Origin: an uncultured virus (IMG/VR IMGVR_UViG_3300042558_003703)
Lineage: Duplodnaviria > Heunggongvirae > Uroviricota > Caudoviricetes
DNA: 64,000 bases
Virus record (IMG/VR): IMGVR_UViG_3300042558_003703
Strand: one strand, 5' to 3'
Each line of letters starts with the position of its first letter. Positions within the stretch are counted from its first letter, which is position 1. Of the stretch, positions 1 to 10,086 are shown piece after piece. A model generated the notes under the pieces. That model was not told the DNA's origin, searched no databases, and saw only the letters and a program-made list of their open reading frames with translations. The position numbers and the translations under genes are program-made.

Positions 1-3000
1 TCCTTGTGGGCCTTGTGGTCCTTGTGGTCCAGTTGCACCAGTAGATCCAATGGGTCCGATAGGTCCTTGTGGTCCTTGTGGTCCAGTTGCACCAGTAGAT
101 CCAATGGGTCCTTGTGGGCCTTGTGGTCCAGTTGCACCAGTAGATCCAATGGGTCCTTGTGGGCCTTGTGGTCCTTGTGGTCCTTGTGGTCCAGTTGCAC
201 CAGTAGATCCAATGGGTCCTTGTGGGCCTTGTGGTCCTTGTGGTCCAGTTGCACCAGTAGATCCAATGGGTCCTTGTGGGCCTTGTGGTCCTTGTGGTCC
301 AGTTGCACCAGTAGATCCAATGGGTCCTTGTGGGCCTTGTGGTCCAGTTGCACCAGTAGATCCAATGGGTCCTTGTGGGCCTTGTGGTCCTTGTGGTCCA
401 GTTGCACCAGTAGATCCAATGGGTCCGATAGGTCCTTGTGGTCCTTGTGGTCCAGTTGCACCAGTAGATCCAATGGGTCCTTGTGGGCCTTGTGGTCCTT
501 GTGGTCCAGTTGCACCAGTAGATCCAATGGGTCCGATAGGTCCTTGTGGTCCTTGTGGTCCAGTTGCACCAGTAGATCCAATGGGTCCTTGTGGTCCTTG
601 TGGGCCTTGTGGTCCTGTGACACCAATGGGTCCGATGGGTCCTTGTGGTCCTTGTGGTCCAGTTACACCAGTTGCTCCCGTGGGTCCTTGTGGTCCACCT
701 GCTAATAGGTTAGTGCCTACTCCTGCGGCTGCTTCTGTTATATCAATATATGCACCACGTACAGTACCGCCTTGCTCAAAAATTCTTATCTTATTTTGAT
801 AAGCATCTATAGTGATACCAGTTCCAGTGTATGTTGAATTTGCAGCAGGTTTTGCTAATAGTATTTCTCCACCTTCGTCACCTACACTGTTGCTCACTAT
901 AATCTGGGGTACTGTTAAAATAGTAGTTCCGTCGAAAGTGAAGTTAGCAGAGCCTGCTGGATTATTAGATCCATCTTTATAAACAACTTGATTGGCAGAT
1001 CCAGCTACTGGTCCTGTGGGTCCTTGTGGTCCAGTTGCACCAGTAGATCCAATGGGTCCTTGTGGTCCAGTTGCACCAGTAGATCCAATGGGTCCTTGTG
1101 GTCCTTGTGGTCCTTGTGGTCCAGTTGCACCAGTAGATCCGATAGGTCCTTGTGGTCCTTGTGGGCCTTGTGGTCCAGTTGCACCAGTAGATCCTGTGGG
1201 TCCTTGTGGTCCTTGTGGTCCTTGTGGGCCTTGTGGTCCAGTTGCACCCGTTGATCCGATAGGTCCTTGTGGTCCAGTTGCACCAGTAGATCCTGTGGGT
1301 CCTTGTGGTCCTTGTGGTCCTTGTGGTCCTTGTGGTCCAGTTGCACCAGTAGATCCTGTGGGTCCTGTGGGTCCTTGTGGTCCTTGTGGTCCAGTTGATC
1401 CAGTTAATCCTGTTGCGCCTTGCAAACCAGTGGCAATCAGCACCAAAATTATAGGAAGATCGTTGGCAAAGTTGGTAGTACCAGTTCCGCCAGAATCAAG
1501 CAGCGTTACCGGTACCTCTACATATCCAGTTTGCAAAGTAGGAGTGCCGTTGACTTCCCATTTTTGGAAGTTGTCACTCAATGCAGCATCCTGTATGATC
1601 ATGACGTCTTTGTTTTTCAACAAAGCCAAAAATACATCAATATCAATACCGTCAGCATCAATATGGCTTATGTTGATGCGAGTCGCATCAACTTGAGTAG
1701 CAGTACTCCAGATAATATCGCTATTGCCGGGATCACCGCTTGTGATACTGGTGTCTACCAAATAATTGTAATAGCCGGCACTTCCGCCGTCTTGACCAGC
1801 AGGGCCTTGTGGGCCTTGCGGACCGGTAGTACCTGTTAAGCCAGTTGCACCTGTGGCACCAATAGGTCCTTGTGGTCCTTGTGGTCCAGTTGTGCCTGTT
1901 AATCCAGTTGCACCTGTAGAACCTATTTCGCCTTGTATACCTGATGCACCAGTTGCTCCGATAGGTCCTTGTGGGCCTTGTGGGCCTTGTGGTCCAGTTG
2001 TGCCTGTTAATCCAGTTGCACCCGTTGATCCGATTTCGCCTTGTATACCTGATGCACCAGTTGCTCCGATAGGTCCTTGTGGGCCTTGTGGTCCAGTTGT
2101 ACCTACAAGGCCAGTCGCACCTGTAGAACCTATTTCGCCTTGAATACCTGACGCACCTGTGGCTCCGATTTCGCCTTGTGGTCCTTGTGGTCCAGTTGTG
2201 CCTGTTAAGCCAGTCGCACCTGTAGAACCTATTTCACCCTGTATGCCGCTAGCACCAGTTGCTCCAATTTCACCCTGTATGCCTGACGCACCAGTTGCAC
2301 CTGTAGGTCCCTGTGGTCCTTGTGGGCCTTGTGGTCCAGTTGTGCCTGTTAAGCCAGTTGCACCTGTAGAACCAATTTCACCCTGTATGCCGCTAGCACC
2401 TGTTGCTCCGATAGGGCCTTGTGGTCCTTGTGGTCCTGTAGTACCTACGAGGCCAGTTGCACCTGTAGAACCTATTTCGCCTTGAATACCTGACGCACCA
2501 GTTGCTCCCGTAGGTCCTTGTGGTCCTGTAGCACCATCTAATCCTGTAGCACCTGTTGCACCAATTTCGCCTTGTGTGCCACCAGCACCAGTAGCACCTG
2601 TGGGTCCTTGTGGGCCAGTTGCTCCATCAAGTCCTGTGGCTCCAATTTCGCCTTGTATACCTGACGCACCAGTTGCTCCGATTTCGCCTTGTATGCCTGA
2701 CGCACCTGTGGCTCCAATTTCGCCTTGTATACCTGACGCACCAGTTGCTCCGATTTCGCCCTGTATGCCTGACGCACCAGTTGCTCCAATTTCACCCTGT
2801 ATGCCACTTGCACCAGTTGCTCCAATTTCACCTTGTATGCCTGACGCACCAGTTGCACCTGTAGGTCCCTGTGGTCCTTGTGGGCCTTGTGGTCCAGTTG
2901 TGCCTGTTAAGCCAGTTGCACCTGTAGAACCAATTTCACCCTGTATGCCGCTAGCACCTGTAGCTCCGATTTCGCCCTGAATACCTGACGCACCTGTTGC

Positions 3001-6000
3001 TCCGGTAGGTCCTTGTGGGCCAGTTGTACCTGTTAAGCCACTGGCACCTGTAGCTCCGATTTCGCCCTGAATACCTGACGCACCTGTTGCTCCGGTAGGT
3101 CCTTGTGGCCCTTGTGGTCCAGTTGTACCTGTTAAGCCACTGGCGCCGGTTGCTCCAATTTCACCCTGTATGCCGCTAGCACCTGTTGCACCAATTTCAC
3201 CCGTAGGTCCTTGTGGTCCTTGTGGGCCAGTTGTACCTGTTAAGCCACTGGCACCAGTTGCTCCGATTTCGCCTTGAATACCTGACGCACCTGTTGCACC
3301 AATTTCACCCGTAGGTCCTTGTGGCCCTTGTGGTCCAGTTGTACCTGTTAAGCCACTGGCGCCGGTTGCTCCAATTTCGCCTTGAATACCTGATGCACCT
3401 GTTGCACCCGTAGGTCCTTGTGGTCCAGTTGTACCTGTTAAGCCACTGGCGCCGGTTGCTCCAATTTCGCCTTGTATACCTGACGCACCAGTTGCACCTG
3501 TAGGTCCTTGTGGTCCTTGTGGGCCGGTAGTACCTACAAGTCCACTAGCACCTGTAGCTCCAATTTCGCCCTGAATACCTGACGCACCTGTTGCTCCGAT
3601 AGGTCCTTGTGGTCCTTGTGGTCCAGTAGTACCTACAAGTCCACTAGCACCTGTAGCTCCAATTTCGCCTTGAATACCTGACGCACCAGTTGCTCCATCA
3701 AAACCAGTTGCTCCGACATCGCCTTGTGGTCCAGTTGCTCCATCAAGACCAGTGGCTCCATCAAGTCCCTGGAATCCAGTAGCACCATCGAATCCAGTTG
3801 CACCGTCAAGTCCTTGATCGCCTTGCATGCCTGTTGCACCAGTGGCACCAATCGAGCCTTCTCCTCCACTAGTGCCTGTAGCGCCGATATCACCTTGAGG
3901 TCCAGTAGCACCTACATCGCCTTGTATACCACTAGCACCTGTTGATCCTTGTGGACCTTGTGGCCCTGTAGTACCAGTTAGACCTGACGCACCAGTTGCA
4001 CCCGTAGGCCCTTGTGGTCCTGTAGCACCATCAAGTCCCTGGAATCCAGTTGCACCATTGAATCCAGTTGCACCGTCAATTCCTTGTTCGCCTTGTATAC
4101 CCGATGCACCTGTGGCACCTACATTACCCTGTATTCCGGTGGCTCCGGTTGCACCTTGTACACCTGATGCACCGGTTGCTCCTGGACCTGTAGCGCCATC
4201 AAATCCCTGTGGTCCTTGTGGTCCAGTTGCTCCAGTTGCACCTGCTCCGGTTGCACCGGTTGCTCCCGTGGGTCCTTGTGGTCCTTGTGGTCCCGTTGCT
4301 CCCGTGGGTCCTTGTGGTCCTTGTGGTCCCGTTGCTCCAATGGGTCCTTGTGGTCCTTGTGGGCCTGTTGTACCTGTAAGTCCTGACGCACCGGTTGCTC
4401 CTACATCGCCTTGAATACCTGACGCACCTGTGGCACCTACATTGCCTTGAATACCTGACGCACCAGTTGCTCCTACATCGCCTTGTGGTCCAGTGGCTCC
4501 ATCTACCCCAGTGGCTCCATCCAATCCTGTAGCACCTACATCTCCCTGTGGTCCAGTGGCTCCATCTAAACCAGTTGCACCTACATTGCCTTGAATGCCT
4601 GACGCACCAGTAGCTCCAATGGGTCCTTGTGGCCCTTGTGGCCCTGTTGTACCTGTTAGTCCAGACGCACCTGTGGCACCTACATCGCCTTGAATACCTG
4701 ACGCACCTGTTGCTCCAATGGGTCCTTGTGGCCCTTGTGGCCCTGTTGTACCTGTAAGACCTGATGCACCTGTTGCTCCAATGGGCCCTTGTGGCCCTGT
4801 TGTACCTGTTAGTCCAGACGCACCTGTGGCACCTACATCGCCTTGAATACCTGACGCACCAGTTGATCCTTGTGGCCCTGTTGTACCTGTAAGACCTGAT
4901 GCACCTGTTGCTCCAATGGGTCCTTGTGGCCCTGTTGTACCTGTTAGTCCAGACGCACCTGTGGCACCTACATCGCCTTGAATACCTGACGCACCAGTTG
5001 ATCCTTGTGGCCCTTGTGGGCCAGTGGCTCCGGCTAGTCCGGTTGCTCCAGCTAGTCCAGTTGCTCCGGCTAGTCCAGTTGCTCCAGCATTGCCTTGCAG
5101 GCCAGTTGCTCCGTCAAATCCAGTAGCTCCATCGAGACCAGTTGAGCCAATATCGCCTTGCAGGCCAGTTGCTCCTGTAGGACCTTGGGGTCCTGTAGTA
5201 CCTGTAAGTCCACTAGCACCTGTGGCGCCTGCACCTGTTGCACCTGTTGGTCCCGACGCACCTGTAGCACCTGTGGGTCCTTGTGGTCCTGTGGTACCTG
5301 CAGGTCCGCTGGCACCGGTGGCTCCACCAGGGCCTTGTGGTCCTTGTGGTCCAGTTGCTCCGTCAACAGCAGAAATTCCTGTCAACAGACTGCCGTCGCC
5401 GATATAGTAGTTGGCAGTGATATTGCCTGTTGCAGAAACATTTCCAGATTGGATGTTGCCGGATATGTAGGCGTTGTCCCAAGGATTAGTTATATTACCA
5501 ACGTCGGCACTGGCACCCAATGTTACTATTGGTACAATGTCTCCGGGCATCTCACTAGTACCAGACTCGGTGAATCTCCAAGTTTTAGTTATTCCATTGA
5601 CAACAATAAGTTCGATGTCAATGCCGGTCAAGCTGATTTGAGATTCTACAACACTGTCAGCATCAATGGATTGTATTCTAATGTCGGATCCGGGTGCGCT
5701 GACAAAATCGTCAGTGCCTTGTTCTGGATGACTGTGCCAATATGCACCGCCAGGCCCAGTGAGAAATTGACCCGATATAGTCCATGTGTCAGATCCAGAT
5801 GAAACAGTTAAATTTCCAGCGGCCAGATTGCCAGTATATGTTGGCAAATAATTAGCCACGTTGGCGTTGCCATAGCCTTGGGGCAGCCCAGTCAACTGAC
5901 TACCGTTGCCAACAAAATAATTTGCAGCAATATTCCCAGTGGTAATTACATTACCAGTTAAACTTCTTAAGTTTCCAGTATATGTTGGCAAATAATCAGC

Positions 6001-6457: not shown

Positions 6458-6784
6458 TTAATTGGGGGAGAAACTGCTCCCGCAACCACATGTTGTGGCC
6501 GCTTGAGGGTTTTTGATGCTGAATGCAGCACCGTATTGATCTTCTTGATAGTCAATTTCGGCACCTTGAAGATAACCGCTGCTCATGCTGTCCATGAGCA
6601 CACGCACACCTCCGAATTTCAGATCAAAATCGTCGTCGTTGACTTCTTCATCCAGGGTAAAGCCGTAGCTCATGCCCGAACACCCACCTCCCTGTACAAA
6701 TACACGCAGTTTAAGTGCTGGATTATTTTCTTCTGCTATTACATCATGCAGTTTGGCAATGGCATTTTCTGTTAAGGTTATCAT
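6458..6784 (-). CDS. erpA: A-type Fe-S carrier protein ErpA/IscA (HesB family)
   Basis: GGGCSGMSY and TCGCGSSF motifs, 108 aa. Confidence 0.92.
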
Positions 6785-7335
6785 AGTCTCTCGTTACAAA
6801 CGTCCCAGTCAATAATTTTCCAAATATTGTCCAGGTATTTTTCTTTGTCCCATTGGTAATCCAGGGCCCAAACGTGTTCCCACCAATCCACTAACACACA
6901 GATATCAGTGCGTACTTGATGATTTGGGATGGTTTTAATAGTGCCAGCTGTGCTCAAATATACCCAGCCGCTGCCCTGTACAGCCATGGCAGTTTTTTTA
7001 AATTCTTCTCGAAAGTCTTCGTAAGTTTTGAAGTGTTCTTCGATCAAGGCCAACACAGCACCCTTAGGGCGGTTGGCACCTTTTGGGGCACGTAGTTGTG
7101 GGAAGAACTTGTTGTGCAAGAAGCTGCCAGCACGGTTAAAGTTAGCATTGCCTTCGCCAGCATTGTAGCGTTTGGCATAGCCTTTGGCCAGATGCTCGTA
7201 GTGATAATTAATGCTGGCTTTGCTGAGCACAGGATCTAATGCTGTTTCGGCATAGGGCAAAGGAGTGGTTTCCAGCTTGGCTGGACGGGTGCTGGCTTCT
7301 ACTAAATCGATATCTTTGCGAATGGGTCGTAACAT
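6781..7335 (-). CDS. Fe/Mn superoxide dismutase
   Basis: [34 protein letters not shown]; the four metal ligands appear present. Confidence 0.9.
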
Positions 7336-7343
7336 ATAGATAT

Positions 7344-7562
7344 TTATTTTCTTTTTATAATACGTCCACGAGCAAGATCGTACGGAGAGAACTCAATCTC
7401 CACGCGATCTCCTGTTAGTATCTTGATTTTGTTTTGGCGCATGCGGCCAGAAATAACACCAATCACTACAGTTTGTTGTAGGTCTAATTGTACTTTAAAC
7501 ATGGCGTTGGGCAGTAGATCTACCACAACGCCTTCCAGTACGAATCCTGCTTCTTTACCCAA
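7344..7562 (-). CDS. infA: Translation initiation factor IF-1
   Basis: EGVVVDLLPNAMFKV...ISGRMRQNKIKILTGDRVEIEFSPYDLARGRI. Confidence 0.95.
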   Translation of the reverse strand: MGKEAGFVLEGVVVDLLPNAMFKVQLDLQQTVVIGVISGRMRQNKIKILTGDRVEIEFSPYDLARGRIIKRK

Positions 7563-7914
7563 GTTTGTAATCTATCCTTATAAGTCTATCCCATCTGAAA
7601 CTGCGCCATGCACCTGCATTAATGTCCCAAACAGCACACACATCCTCGTTTGGTTTTTTTGTTTTGAGTTCTTTAGCGGCATTTTCTACTACGGGTGTCT
7701 GTGTATACTTAGCACCATGAAGATCACTTAGGGTGCAATTCATAACACGTACGGAACCATCGGCCTTCTTAAACTCAACCAACTGCGGCCCCGAATGTAG
7801 CAACATCTTAATCTCGGACTTGAGAAAATCCAAGTCCTGTCCTGATAAATCAAATGTATGGCAATCGCCACCTTCTCGAAGACGACGCATAATTTGTTCT
7901 TGTTCAAAGTTCAT
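7555..7914 (-). CDS. WYL-like/SH3 beta-barrel phage protein
   Basis: VEFKKADGSVRVMNCT...VWDINAGAWRSFRWD. Confidence 0.7.
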   Translation of the reverse strand: MNFEQEQIMRRLREGGDCHTFDLSGQDLDFLKSEIKMLLHSGPQLVEFKKADGSVRVMNCTLSDLHGAKYTQTPVVENAAKELKTKKPNEDVCAVWDINAGAWRSFRWDRLIRIDYKLG

Positions 7915-8122: not shown

Positions 8123-8492
8123 GGCGCATGGTACTGATCTCAACCGCTTCCTCATCTGAGAAAACAGGTACTGCATTGCTCTTGTGCATAGTACCAATAC
8201 CTTTGACCTTGGTGCCAGTGTAGACTTTGTCGGGTGCTCGTGCTGCTACCCCTAGCCCGGTGTTGAGACTGGGAATGTGATCTGTTGAGCGCGGAATTGA
8301 TATTTTGGGCATCTTGCTGTTGGTAAAAGATTTTGAAAACACAGGCCTCTTGGGTGTATGCGTCTGCTTGAGTTGCTGCCAATCTGCTGCCAACTGCTCG
8401 TGTTGACGTTTGGCTTCTGCAGAAGCAAACTTGGGCTTTGCACGTTTTTTACCAGTGGTACTAAGCCAGGGACCTTCCAAATGCATCGACAC
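8115..8492 (-). CDS. Basic hypothetical phage protein
   Basis: Ends YTGTKVKGIGTMHKSNAVPVFSDEEAVEISTMRR; follows a sigma70 promoter. Confidence 0.7.
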   Translation of the reverse strand: MSMHLEGPWLSTTGKKRAKPKFASAEAKRQHEQLAADWQQLKQTHTPKRPVFSKSFTNSKMPKISIPRSTDHIPSLNTGLGVAARAPDKVYTGTKVKGIGTMHKSNAVPVFSDEEAVEISTMRRG

Positions 8493-8522
8493 AGGTGTGC
8501 TCCTTGTTAGTGATTATACTAC

Positions 8523-8551
8523 ATTATAACAAACAACACATTACCGGTCAA
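8523..8551 (-). promoter_or_regulatory. Sigma70-type early promoter TTGACC-N17-TATAAT
   Basis: -35 at 8551-8546, -10 at 8528-8523. Confidence 0.8.
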
Positions 8552-8880
8552 CCACGATCTAATAGGTCGATCTTGTTGGGCTTACCGTCCCATTCAACAG
8601 CATCGGGCAAGGGTTCTTTCTTTCTTGTAATAATGGACCAAGTCTTGGACAGTTCGGCATTGATAGCCAAAAAATGTCGTTGGTTTTCAGGCAAGTCTTC
8701 TTCGGCAAAGATAGCGCCAGCTGGACATTCGGGAACACACACAGCACAGTCGATACATTCCGAAGGATCGATAATCAAGAAGTTTGGACCTTCCTTGAAA
8801 CAATCTACAAGCTAAGGGCAGACATCAACACAGTCGGTATACTTGCATTTAATACAGTTTTCAGTTACGACGTATGTCAT
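8548..8880 (-). CDS. fdxA: 7Fe ([3Fe-4S]/[4Fe-4S]) ferredoxin interrupted by an in-frame 6-nt insertion TAG-CTT (recoded or pseudogene)
   Basis: [52 protein letters not shown]..., colinear with Azotobacter FdI-type ferredoxins except TAG (8814-8812) and CTT (8811-8809). SD AGGAGG upstream. Confidence 0.88.
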
Positions 8881-9661
8881 TGTCTGCCCTTGCCTCCTTG
8901 TTTAGGATTCCGTCCTTGTGCGGGACATACAAGTGTATGTCTACAAAACTTTTTAAACATTCAGTATAACCTCCAAATCTTTTTTTAGGTTTATATTTTT
9001 CTACAGTAGACAGAATTTTTTGTTCTGCTAATGCTATATTATACATGGTATCGCATACAGTGTCAACAACTTCAAAATCATAATGTGCAATGTATTTTAT
9101 ACGATCTCTGACATCTAATTTGGTAGTAATTCCAATTTTATAAAAATCTTCTGAAGAATTATATAAAAGATATAATGTAGCAGGAATATCTTTTTTATCG
9201 GGGTATCTATCAAAATAAGTGTTTATGAACCAGGGTCTATAATCACCGTGTTTCTTATCACCACATTTTCTACAACCATATCCTTCAAGGTGGCCGCTTG
9301 CGTTTTGATCAAAATCACCGTGTATAGGACAAGTTATTGTTACGCTAGATCGACTGTTGACATAATTTGTTTTGGTGTATGCATAAAAATTATTGTGCAA
9401 TTTTTCAGCTTTAGATATAAACTCATTATTGGTCATCCTTCGACGCAAAACGTAATCAGACCAATTATCTTTACATTGTTGGCAACCGGACCCTGATAAC
9501 AATGTTCGAGCATTTCTTTTAAAGACCCCGTGTAGATTGCAAGTTAGAACTACATTACTTCTTGTATTGATGTAGACTGTATTTGCATAATCATATCGAT
9601 CTTTATAAATTTCTTGGCACCTAGAGACAAATTCGTCCTGCGTTAGTTTTTTTGTAGACAT
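8861..9661 (-). mobile_element. Free-standing homing endonuclease: two Cys/His zinc-binding repeats plus a T5orf172/GIY-YIG-like nuclease domain
   Basis: Repeats YDY..TVY....V.LTC..HG.F.......G.GC..C twice; C-terminal LYLL...FYKIGIT...DRI...EQKI...GYTE. AT-rich, own TAAATA box, overlaps the fdx start. Confidence 0.8.
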
Positions 9662-9696
9662 AAAATTATTTATGCCGGACACACTTTAACGCAGTT

Positions 9697-10086
9697 CTAT
9701 TTTTGTAGAGTTGCCCACATTTTTTGTTTGGCCAACAAGTCTGCTTCTAATTGTCGGTACCGCGCACCGAGCTCACGCAATTCATTCCATTCAGATTCCA
9801 ATGCAGTATTTGGTGTCAATAAGTTGAGTCGTTCCTGTATGCCTTTTAGTGTGTCGTTCAAGCTGACGTTATTGATGACAATATCGGCGCCTTCACCTTT
9901 TAAATCTAAACGTCCGGTTGGAACAGTCGAATCAAATGTGCTGGTGATATTAATAGAGTCCAGGGCGTTTGTAGTATGCCAAACGTATTGGTCGCCTGTT
10001 AATGAATTTGTTGTTATCGAATTGTTTAAGGGCGCAGTACTTGTATACATGCTATCTGCAGAGTTAGAAAATAATGAATTAAACAT
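9697..10086 (-). CDS. Hypothetical protein with C-terminal coiled coil
   Basis: 129-aa ORF coupled to the upstream ORF. Confidence 0.65.
   Translation of the reverse strand: MFNSLFSNSADSMYTSTAPLNNSITTNSLTGDQYVWHTTNALDSINITSTFDSTVPTGRLDLKGEGADIVINNVSLNDTLKGIQERLNLLTPNTALESEWNELRELGARYRQLEADLLAKQKMWATLQK

Follow-up and report, generated by a model that had tools for sequence, protein, structure and literature searches.

A nuclease cassette inside phage ferredoxin genes and a candidate ribosomal hop over a stop-containing gap of five or six nucleotides

A gene for a 7Fe ferredoxin (fdx, 8880-8548, minus strand) in the 64,000 nt stretch of phage DNA analysed here (the window) reads ...VCP*LVDC..., and the question it raises is how a gene interrupted in this way could be kept and still yield its protein. 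The interruption is the hexanucleotide TAGCTT at 8814-8809 (minus strand), between the Pro and Val codons of VCPVDC; we describe it as a gap (8809..8814, minus strand, defined by sequence) made up of a TAG stop and a presumed landing triplet CTT. On one side of it lie fdx codons 1-22 (8815..8880, minus strand), which include GTCTGC (8823-8818), the 3' strand of a helix described below, and end in CCT (8817-8815, minus strand), the presumed take-off codon. On the other side lies the 3' part of the gene (VDCF...LLDRG, 8548..8808, minus strand), assigned to the FdxA type by profile and alignment matches. Compared with Azotobacter-type 7Fe ferredoxin chains (E 5e-46) the window gene has an exact two-codon insertion between CP and VDC. 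A sequence-only reading had proposed that a homing endonuclease abutting fdx cuts insert-free alleles at these codons, that the insert confers immunity and that recoding rescues the protein. The 6 nt insert on which that proposal was built is real, as the same break recurs in viral and metagenome data. The window itself is a fragment of a large phage and shares 97% of sampled words with its nearest virus record (G001, a 65 kb fragment). Beside fdx (6458-7914) is a cluster of host-like genes, which encode an Fe-S assembly protein, an Fe/Mn superoxide dismutase, IF-1 and a WYL_2 protein. At positions 1-5800 the minus strand has a long stretch of collagen-like repeats, and the plus strand opposite carries shadow ORFs rich in Pro.

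To collect further examples we scanned viral contigs and metagenomes with sequence patterns and obtained 49 distinct interrupted fdx alleles, many of them from aquatic phages (two mis-anchored rows, L102 and L117, were left out of this set). The interruption was present in 19 of 28 viral matches, the other nine being non-ferredoxin chance matches, and all 58 metagenome matches had TAG under a scan pattern that also permitted TAA, TGA and TGG (CAG lay outside the pattern). Sequencing error as the source of the interruption is ruled out by the 49 alleles and chance by the recurrence in 19 of 28 viral and 58 of 58 metagenome matches. When viral contigs were scanned for any insertion of 1-30 nt (27 matches, six of them non-ferredoxin) no sense insertion in a ferredoxin was seen. 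None of 50,697 records of cultured phages contained the cassette, and the GTDB genomes gave a single 3.8 kb contig with the interruption (L239, a 5 nt allele), which is probably phage DNA inside a bin. From the gap sequences the alleles could be divided into two groups. The larger group (38 of 49) has a 6 nt gap consisting of TAG followed by CCA (13 alleles), CTA (11), CTT (11), CCG (2) or CTG (1). The smaller group (11 of 49) has a frame-shifting 5 nt gap, in each case CCG TAGCG GTA, so that the remainder of the gene is out of frame. In all 49 alleles TAG-C stands in frame directly after the presumed take-off codon; the triplet after TAG switches between Pro and Leu codons with TTA and TTG never used, the last base of the gap is A, T or G, and the landing triplet is a Pro codon in 15, CTN in 23 and GCG in 11. 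For comparison we had at least 147 uninterrupted (empty) alleles, 118 of them with at least 1 kb of upstream DNA. Throughout, allele counts are counts of related alleles and not of independent events.

Next to the interrupted gene in the window is an ORF for a putative homing endonuclease of 266 aa (8861..9661, minus strand, ATG start, assigned from its domains and a PHROG match), which overlaps the fdx ATG by 20 nt and stops 47 nt from the insert, close to the 50 bp or so estimated earlier. Two DUF723/CapR-type zinc repeats (two copies of C-x2-HG...C-x2-C) are followed by a C-terminal T5orf172/GIY-YIG-like domain; DUF723 scores 21.9 bits (Pfam cut-off 20.9), T5orf172 scores 18 bits, just under its cut-off of 20 (E 0.004), and a PHROG endonuclease family is matched at E 2.5e-39. 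The GC content of the ORF is 0.337 vs 0.435 for the window, and the ORF is as described earlier, AT-rich, with zinc repeats and a weak T5orf172 match, and overlapping the fdx start. Eleven full-length copies are 58-66% identical with Y174, G177, R187, E213 and E234 invariant; Tyr, Gly, Arg and Glu residues of this kind have a role in T5orf172/GIY-YIG domains. The nuclease also has, as had been suggested, a TAAATA box of its own: GCATAAATA (9667..9675, minus strand) lies 5 nt before its ATG and resembles a late promoter, and all 11 full-length copies for which upstream sequence is available have it. The same box, at a similarly short spacing, is found upstream of four other long ORFs in the window. 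TAAATA is the late promoter box of T4, and by analogy it may drive late transcription of the nuclease. Among distant relatives of the nuclease (21 matches, 27-41% identity) neither a ferredoxin nor, by eye, a gapped target gene was found beside the nuclease in the 15 contexts viewed. One locus of this wider family (L248:1276-3753) has two tandem nucleases between nrdA-like and nrdB-like genes (by eye), and at L031:1700-2000 another nuclease-like gene, of a different kind (HIYP...DNL, HNH-like by eye), has taken the place of most of the cassette nuclease.

The position of the nuclease relative to fdx became clear from the sequence on its far side. In all 11 full-nuclease loci for which upstream sequence exists the codons C-x-x-V-C-P stand directly before GCATAAATA, and in the window comparison of codons identifies 9676..9696 (minus strand, N-C-V-K-V-C-P) as a leftover 5' fragment of the invaded fdx and as the left junction of the cassette. 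Seven old fdx codons are kept there in the window and all 22 in L199 and L218. As these old codons lie to the left of the nuclease and end at the same site as the gap, the element must have inserted inside fdx, bringing with it a second copy of codons 1-22. The order is thus old 5' fdx fragment, TAAATA box, nuclease, a 43 nt structured leader, codons 1-22, and TAG with two or three further bases. The left junction coincides with the CP codons proposed earlier as the target. That proposal had a mobile, mobA/gene 60-like cassette adjoining fdx; the mobility and the likeness hold, but the element sits within the gene and resupplies codons 1-22 together with a structured leader, and although the observation was real its extent was underestimated, with the 5 nt alleles, the left fdx fragment and the leader all missed. 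The occupied allele L024 is 97.7% identical to its empty sister L146 upstream, up to the region of the old ATG, and keeps the old fdx start fused to the nuclease tail. The junctions resemble a short CC duplication. The left half-site abuts the TAAATA box (window 9667-9696) and is conserved; the nuclease might bind it and repress itself, in the manner of I-TevI, for which autorepression has reportedly been seen, or the half-site might be kept as homology for homing.

Co-occurrence of nuclease and insert across related genomes had been put forward as a check, and it holds: 12 of 12 full-length nucleases adjoin an interrupted fdx, and none of the 147 empty alleles among the matches listed has an intact nuclease beside it. 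In 50 rows (the 49 alleles and the window) there were 12 full nucleases, 24 remnants, four matches running to the contig end, seven rows without a nuclease match and three with too little upstream DNA; six of the seven rows without a match, gave on translation the tail of a divergent nuclease of the L175 kind. The shortest remnants consist of nothing but the leader, which codes for the last residues of the nuclease, and they are not separate evidence. A nuclease match was found in one of the 147 empty alleles among the matches listed (L033, a 58 aa remnant); this allele resembles the other empty ones at codons 16-22 and looks to have reverted by gene conversion after its nuclease died. The interrupted alleles are scattered over the ferredoxin tree, and on a quick tree of the 3' part (92 columns, 189 rows, many open forks) the starred branches force at least six changes for the 6 nt state and at least four for the 5 nt state, with labels still clustered vs shuffles. 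The cassette has moved between phage lineages. Loss of the nuclease is common as well. Over 8975-8158 L201 matches the window at 100% identity, yet it is without 9686-8976, which is nearly the entire nuclease, and in 23 comparable nuclease-less alleles the DNA kept ranges from 347 nt down to 43 nt but is never shorter. Most interrupted alleles later lost the nuclease while leader and gap stayed. The 43 nt floor equals the length of the leader, and the first base of a pseudoknot within it lies at about -43.

The whole structured leader occupies 8881-8923 (minus strand, 43 nt). Immediately before fdx is the strand GCAGAC (8882..8887, minus strand), which can pair with codons 20-21: in 45 of 45 interrupted alleles, vs two of 147 empty alleles among the matches listed, a hexamer whose end lies 0-2 nt ahead of the ATG pairs with codons 20-21 at six of six positions. 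Compensatory changes in this helix were found in two separate sets of alleles (L002/L230 and L019/L185/L220). One empty allele without a nuclease match, L267, passes the 6 bp helix test, either by chance or as a reverted cassette. At codon 20, 43 of 45 interrupted alleles have GTC vs 14 of 147 empty ones, and at codon 18 all 45 have GTY vs 49 of 147, in both cases among the matches listed; codons 17 and 21 were left out of this comparison as they are biased by the search patterns. A Shine-Dalgarno sequence GGAGG (8893..8897, minus strand) has an unusually long spacing of 11-13 nt to the ATG, and GGAGG at this spacing is present in 43 of 45 interrupted vs one of 147 empty alleles among the matches listed. 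Further upstream is a pseudoknot-like element (8903..8923, minus strand), a CCG..CGG stem crossing a stem of 4-5 bp, or alternatively two hairpins that exclude each other; its two stems have 93.5% and 92.1% of cells paired, with double changes in one of three and four of five pairs, and the fold is remade with other letters in the L022 type. A small hairpin, ACATAC-N4-GTATGT (8925..8940, minus strand), lies inside the 3' end of the nuclease gene in most alleles (by eye); judged from its absence where 43-45 nt are kept, it is dispensable. When the four helices are taken together in 41 of 46 full-leader alleles, 94.6% of cells are paired and 70 double changes occur. None of 500 shuffles reached either value, while slid controls gave 30-46% paired, though it should be noted that shuffles ignore kinship and that the structure was derived from the same sequences. 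The structure did not outdo the shuffles on two other measures, namely how many pairs show double changes and how many pair types occur. In the window the leader and 5' coding region fold with z -3.9 and the start codon is buried in a hairpin of -44 kcal/mol. A loose leader pattern gave 49 distinct matches, and all five with a recognisable, well-placed gene were at fdx; in five carrier records the leader pattern occurs once each in four, the L175-type leader being unmatched. Loose-pattern matches without fdx (L384, L398, L400, L405 and similar) show, in many contigs, a recurring hairpin followed by GGAGG and represent a separate element.

A compact conserved RNA next to the gap could mean that the gap is removed or edited in the RNA, the leader serving as a guide within the transcript or as a small ribozyme. 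The pairing of the leader up to the gap, and in many alleles across it, is guide-like, and the pseudoknot-like fold adjoins it. We nevertheless regard removal as very unlikely, as Rfam gave no match on 8400-9800 at E up to 5, just 43 nt of leader are always kept, both the length of the gap (5 or 6) and its last base (A, T or G) vary, and the pairing across the gap is missing in 5 nt and L022-type alleles. A core of group I type is too large for 43 nt; a group I intron was rejected on this minimal leader, on the Rfam result and on the gap end, which is A, T or G and not a terminal G.

The in-frame stop in every allele and the buried start could also be taken to mean that no full-length protein is made. 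On this view fdx is dead, or re-initiation yields its product in two pieces (an in-frame TTG lies 10 codons past the gap in the window), and the leader has another task, such as mRNA stability or nuclease autoregulation. This is the least probable of the explanations considered here. Downstream frames of 85-96 aa are intact in 40 of 40 alleles uncut by the contig end (five shorter frames run off the contig), and in the 3' core 41 close pairs of interrupted alleles, which are not independent, give a pN/pS of 0.068 and 55 five-nt pairs one of 0.10, against 0.091 for 811 empty pairs; even in the nuclease-less L022 clade it is 0.21 over 88 codons. These ratios point to purifying selection on the downstream frames of interrupted fdx, part of which may be older than the invasion. 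Moreover, the resupplied 5' copy is whole while the left copy decays, the leader outlasts the nuclease, and no conserved start codon follows the gap. Synonymous divergence is ten times lower in the resupplied part than downstream (0.058 vs 0.567), which fits either RNA constraint or shared cassette ancestry.

If a full-length protein is made, the same cassette might be rescued by amber readthrough in 6 nt alleles and by a -1 slip at TGC-CCG in 5 nt alleles (from CCG to CCC), both routes adding two residues, with the leader helix stimulating rescue or only regulating initiation. Several observations agree with this. Matches between take-off and landing triplets are often poor, which counts against a hop; the take-off codon is CCG in 11 of 11 five-nt alleles, supplying the Val codon for the -1 frame; and three of the best 120 database proteins, with two more in their clusters, read CP-QL-VDC. 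These five proteins may be cases of TAG read as Gln by gene callers, and P0124, a 65 aa cluster mate with an identical C-terminus, was started after the break. Against this, the spacing from CP to C is two in 117 of the best 120 database proteins and in 147 of 147 empty alleles among the matches listed, two mechanisms would be needed in one family, in which loss of one C connects CCG-TAG-CCG (L218) with CCG-TAG-CG, and the triplet after TAG toggles between Pro and Leu. No sense codon replaces TAG in the viral contigs, nor TGG in the 58 metagenome matches, though this would fix expression. No CUA anticodon was found among 143 tRNAs of five carrier contigs (17-80% complete; two anticodons unclear), no CUA suppressor tRNA in the window or its nearest record, and TAG ends ordinary window genes. 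Genome-wide reassignment of TAG was rejected: with table 11 the long genes read as open frames, and TAG closes 10 of the 85 ORFs listed (some of them shadow ORFs). A hop over the stop is favoured over readthrough because 11 alleles are out of frame; it would cover both gap lengths by one mechanism and explain how the normal protein is made. We consider readthrough with slippage unlikely, if the most serious of the alternatives.

The reading that we prefer, and think rather probable, is of a homing cassette whose gap blocks re-cutting, with ribosomes hopping from the Pro codon over UAG under the pull of the leader helix. In this reading a free-standing homing endonuclease cassette invades fdxA of phages at the Cys-Pro|Val codons, which are conserved. 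Its nuclease, expressed late from the TAAATA box, would cut empty alleles at or beside the insertion site, and the gap would prevent re-cutting of an otherwise rebuilt target. As the cassette carries its own codons 1-22 and leader, the gene can still be started, and the full-length ferredoxin would come from a programmed hop. The ribosome would pause with peptidyl-tRNA-Pro on CCU or CCG and UAG-C in the A site; the long hairpin of leader and 5' coding sequence would zip up behind it and pull mRNA through, and pulling would stop once the helix GCAGAC:GUCUGC arrives at the exit, 5-6 nt short of the landing triplet. Re-pairing of the tRNA on a matched or near-matched triplet (CCA, CCG, CUN or GCG) would follow, and decoding would restart at Val. 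The Pro tRNAs of the carrier contigs all have a UGG anticodon (seven of seven). The helix would join the 5' leader to codons just behind take-off and so act as a ruler at the mRNA exit: of 45 alleles, 32 have 5 nt and 10 have 6 nt between its end and the landing triplet, which is roughly where a Shine-Dalgarno duplex sits relative to the P site. As the helix covers the E-site codon at take-off, it can be completed only during or after movement. No mini-Shine-Dalgarno sequence was found 6 nt before the landing codon, a place occupied by codons 20-21, and the leader GGAGG comes near the landing site only in the folded RNA. The probable role of the pseudoknot and the far-spaced Shine-Dalgarno sequence is to permit initiation at the buried start or to meter it. 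At fdx codons 11-14 (window 8839-8850) the nascent peptide is KCKY or KCKH, resembling the KKYK motif that aids bypassing in gene 60 (10.1101/2024.12.09.627546); since empty alleles have it too, it is at most a pre-adaptation.

The hop could be real and the gap still not be the basis of immunity, if the nuclease cuts at another place close by, or synonymous changes in the resupplied copy protect it, and the gap is an insertion scar. In keeping with this the resupplied codons 18 and 20 differ synonymously from those of empty alleles, and the junctions resemble the CC duplication noted above. However, a gap-free resupplied copy is seen with an intact nuclease in none of 12 cases, the sole gap-free cassette has a dead nuclease, and for mobA the gap blocked nicking while polymorphisms alone did not (10.1101/2022.08.31.505936). 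We judge a scar without protective function highly improbable.

For a programmed hop of 5-6 nt the fdx alleles make a strong but unproven case, in which a real, widespread mobile cassette carries a defined cis-acting RNA element. Natural cases of programmed bypassing are very few, T4 gene 60 chief among them, and short-distance counterparts of gene 60 have long been expected. The whole signal here spans about 115 nt, and nature supplies dozens of variants of it as well as a series of deletions. Two gap lengths and six landing triplets are found, along with compensatory changes in the helix and deletions that nest within one another, and with this variety mRNA pairing at the exit site as a motor of the ribosome becomes directly testable in a reporter. 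It would also show one more way in which a homing nuclease can live in a conserved gene without splicing, by resupplying the start and hiding its target behind a skipped stop. Genes of this kind are likely to be mis-called in databases as broken or as TAG-to-Gln. No description of the fdx cassette was found in the open-access literature, and the word ferredoxin is absent from the main text of Manning and Atkins (10.1101/2022.08.31.505936).

Among known systems the closest is T4 mobA/gene 60. In both, as far as the published account extends, the nuclease lies inside its target gene, a homologous stretch of the target is resupplied, UAG follows the take-off codon, invasion has been repeated and the nuclease can be lost with the gap kept (10.1101/2022.08.31.505936); protection from cutting by the gap is established for mobA in that account and only presumed for fdx. 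The T4 system has an HNH MobA (with some GIY-YIG or VSR replacements) and here it is a DUF723/T5orf172 protein; the target is the gene for the large subunit of topoisomerase there and ferredoxin here; the gap is 50 nt in T4 gene 60 and 5 or 6 nt in 49 of 49 fdx alleles. The fdx cassette is not a member of mobA/gene 60 because nuclease family, target and gap length all differ, and its origin is separate. The landing codon is matched in gene 60 and mostly unmatched in fdx, and the product is a split two-chain protein in the one case and, with the whole N-terminus resupplied, a single chain in the other. For gene 60 a 5' stem-loop that completes outside the exit channel is the proposed motor (PMC5009743; 10.1101/2024.12.09.627546), and the 5' helix of the fdx cassette is, unlike that of gene 60, built from the leader. 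T5orf172 homing endonucleases with CapR/DUF723 zinc fingers, the same domain make-up, occur in ICP1 and other phages, and the sections of that report drawn on describe no ferredoxin target or coding gap for them (PMC10448857). Of short gaps in phage genes the nearest case is the 10 nt bypass of the Streptomyces phage Hau3 terminase, for which a 5' stem-loop and Shine-Dalgarno sequence are proposed as signals, and its junction peptide was seen in Escherichia coli (PMC10732093); there, however, the trigger is a hungry UUA codon, the proposed role is regulatory, there is no nuclease cassette and homing goes unmentioned in the text (PMC10732093). Synthetic stop hops such as CCT-TAG-CCA, in which nine bases give one residue with the stop between take-off and landing, have the same layout as the fdx gap; they are low-level and signal-free in constructs (PMC5009743), whereas the fdx hop would be natural, programmed by structure and tolerant of 5 nt. 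In the relevant part of their review, Atkins et al. knew of no natural in-frame stop hopping to 2016 (PMC5009743). We would give roughly even chances that fdx is the first natural stop-hop and an independent second pairing of a nuclease with bypassing, over 5-6 nt, in which an exit-site helix acting as a ruler matters more for landing than codon match.
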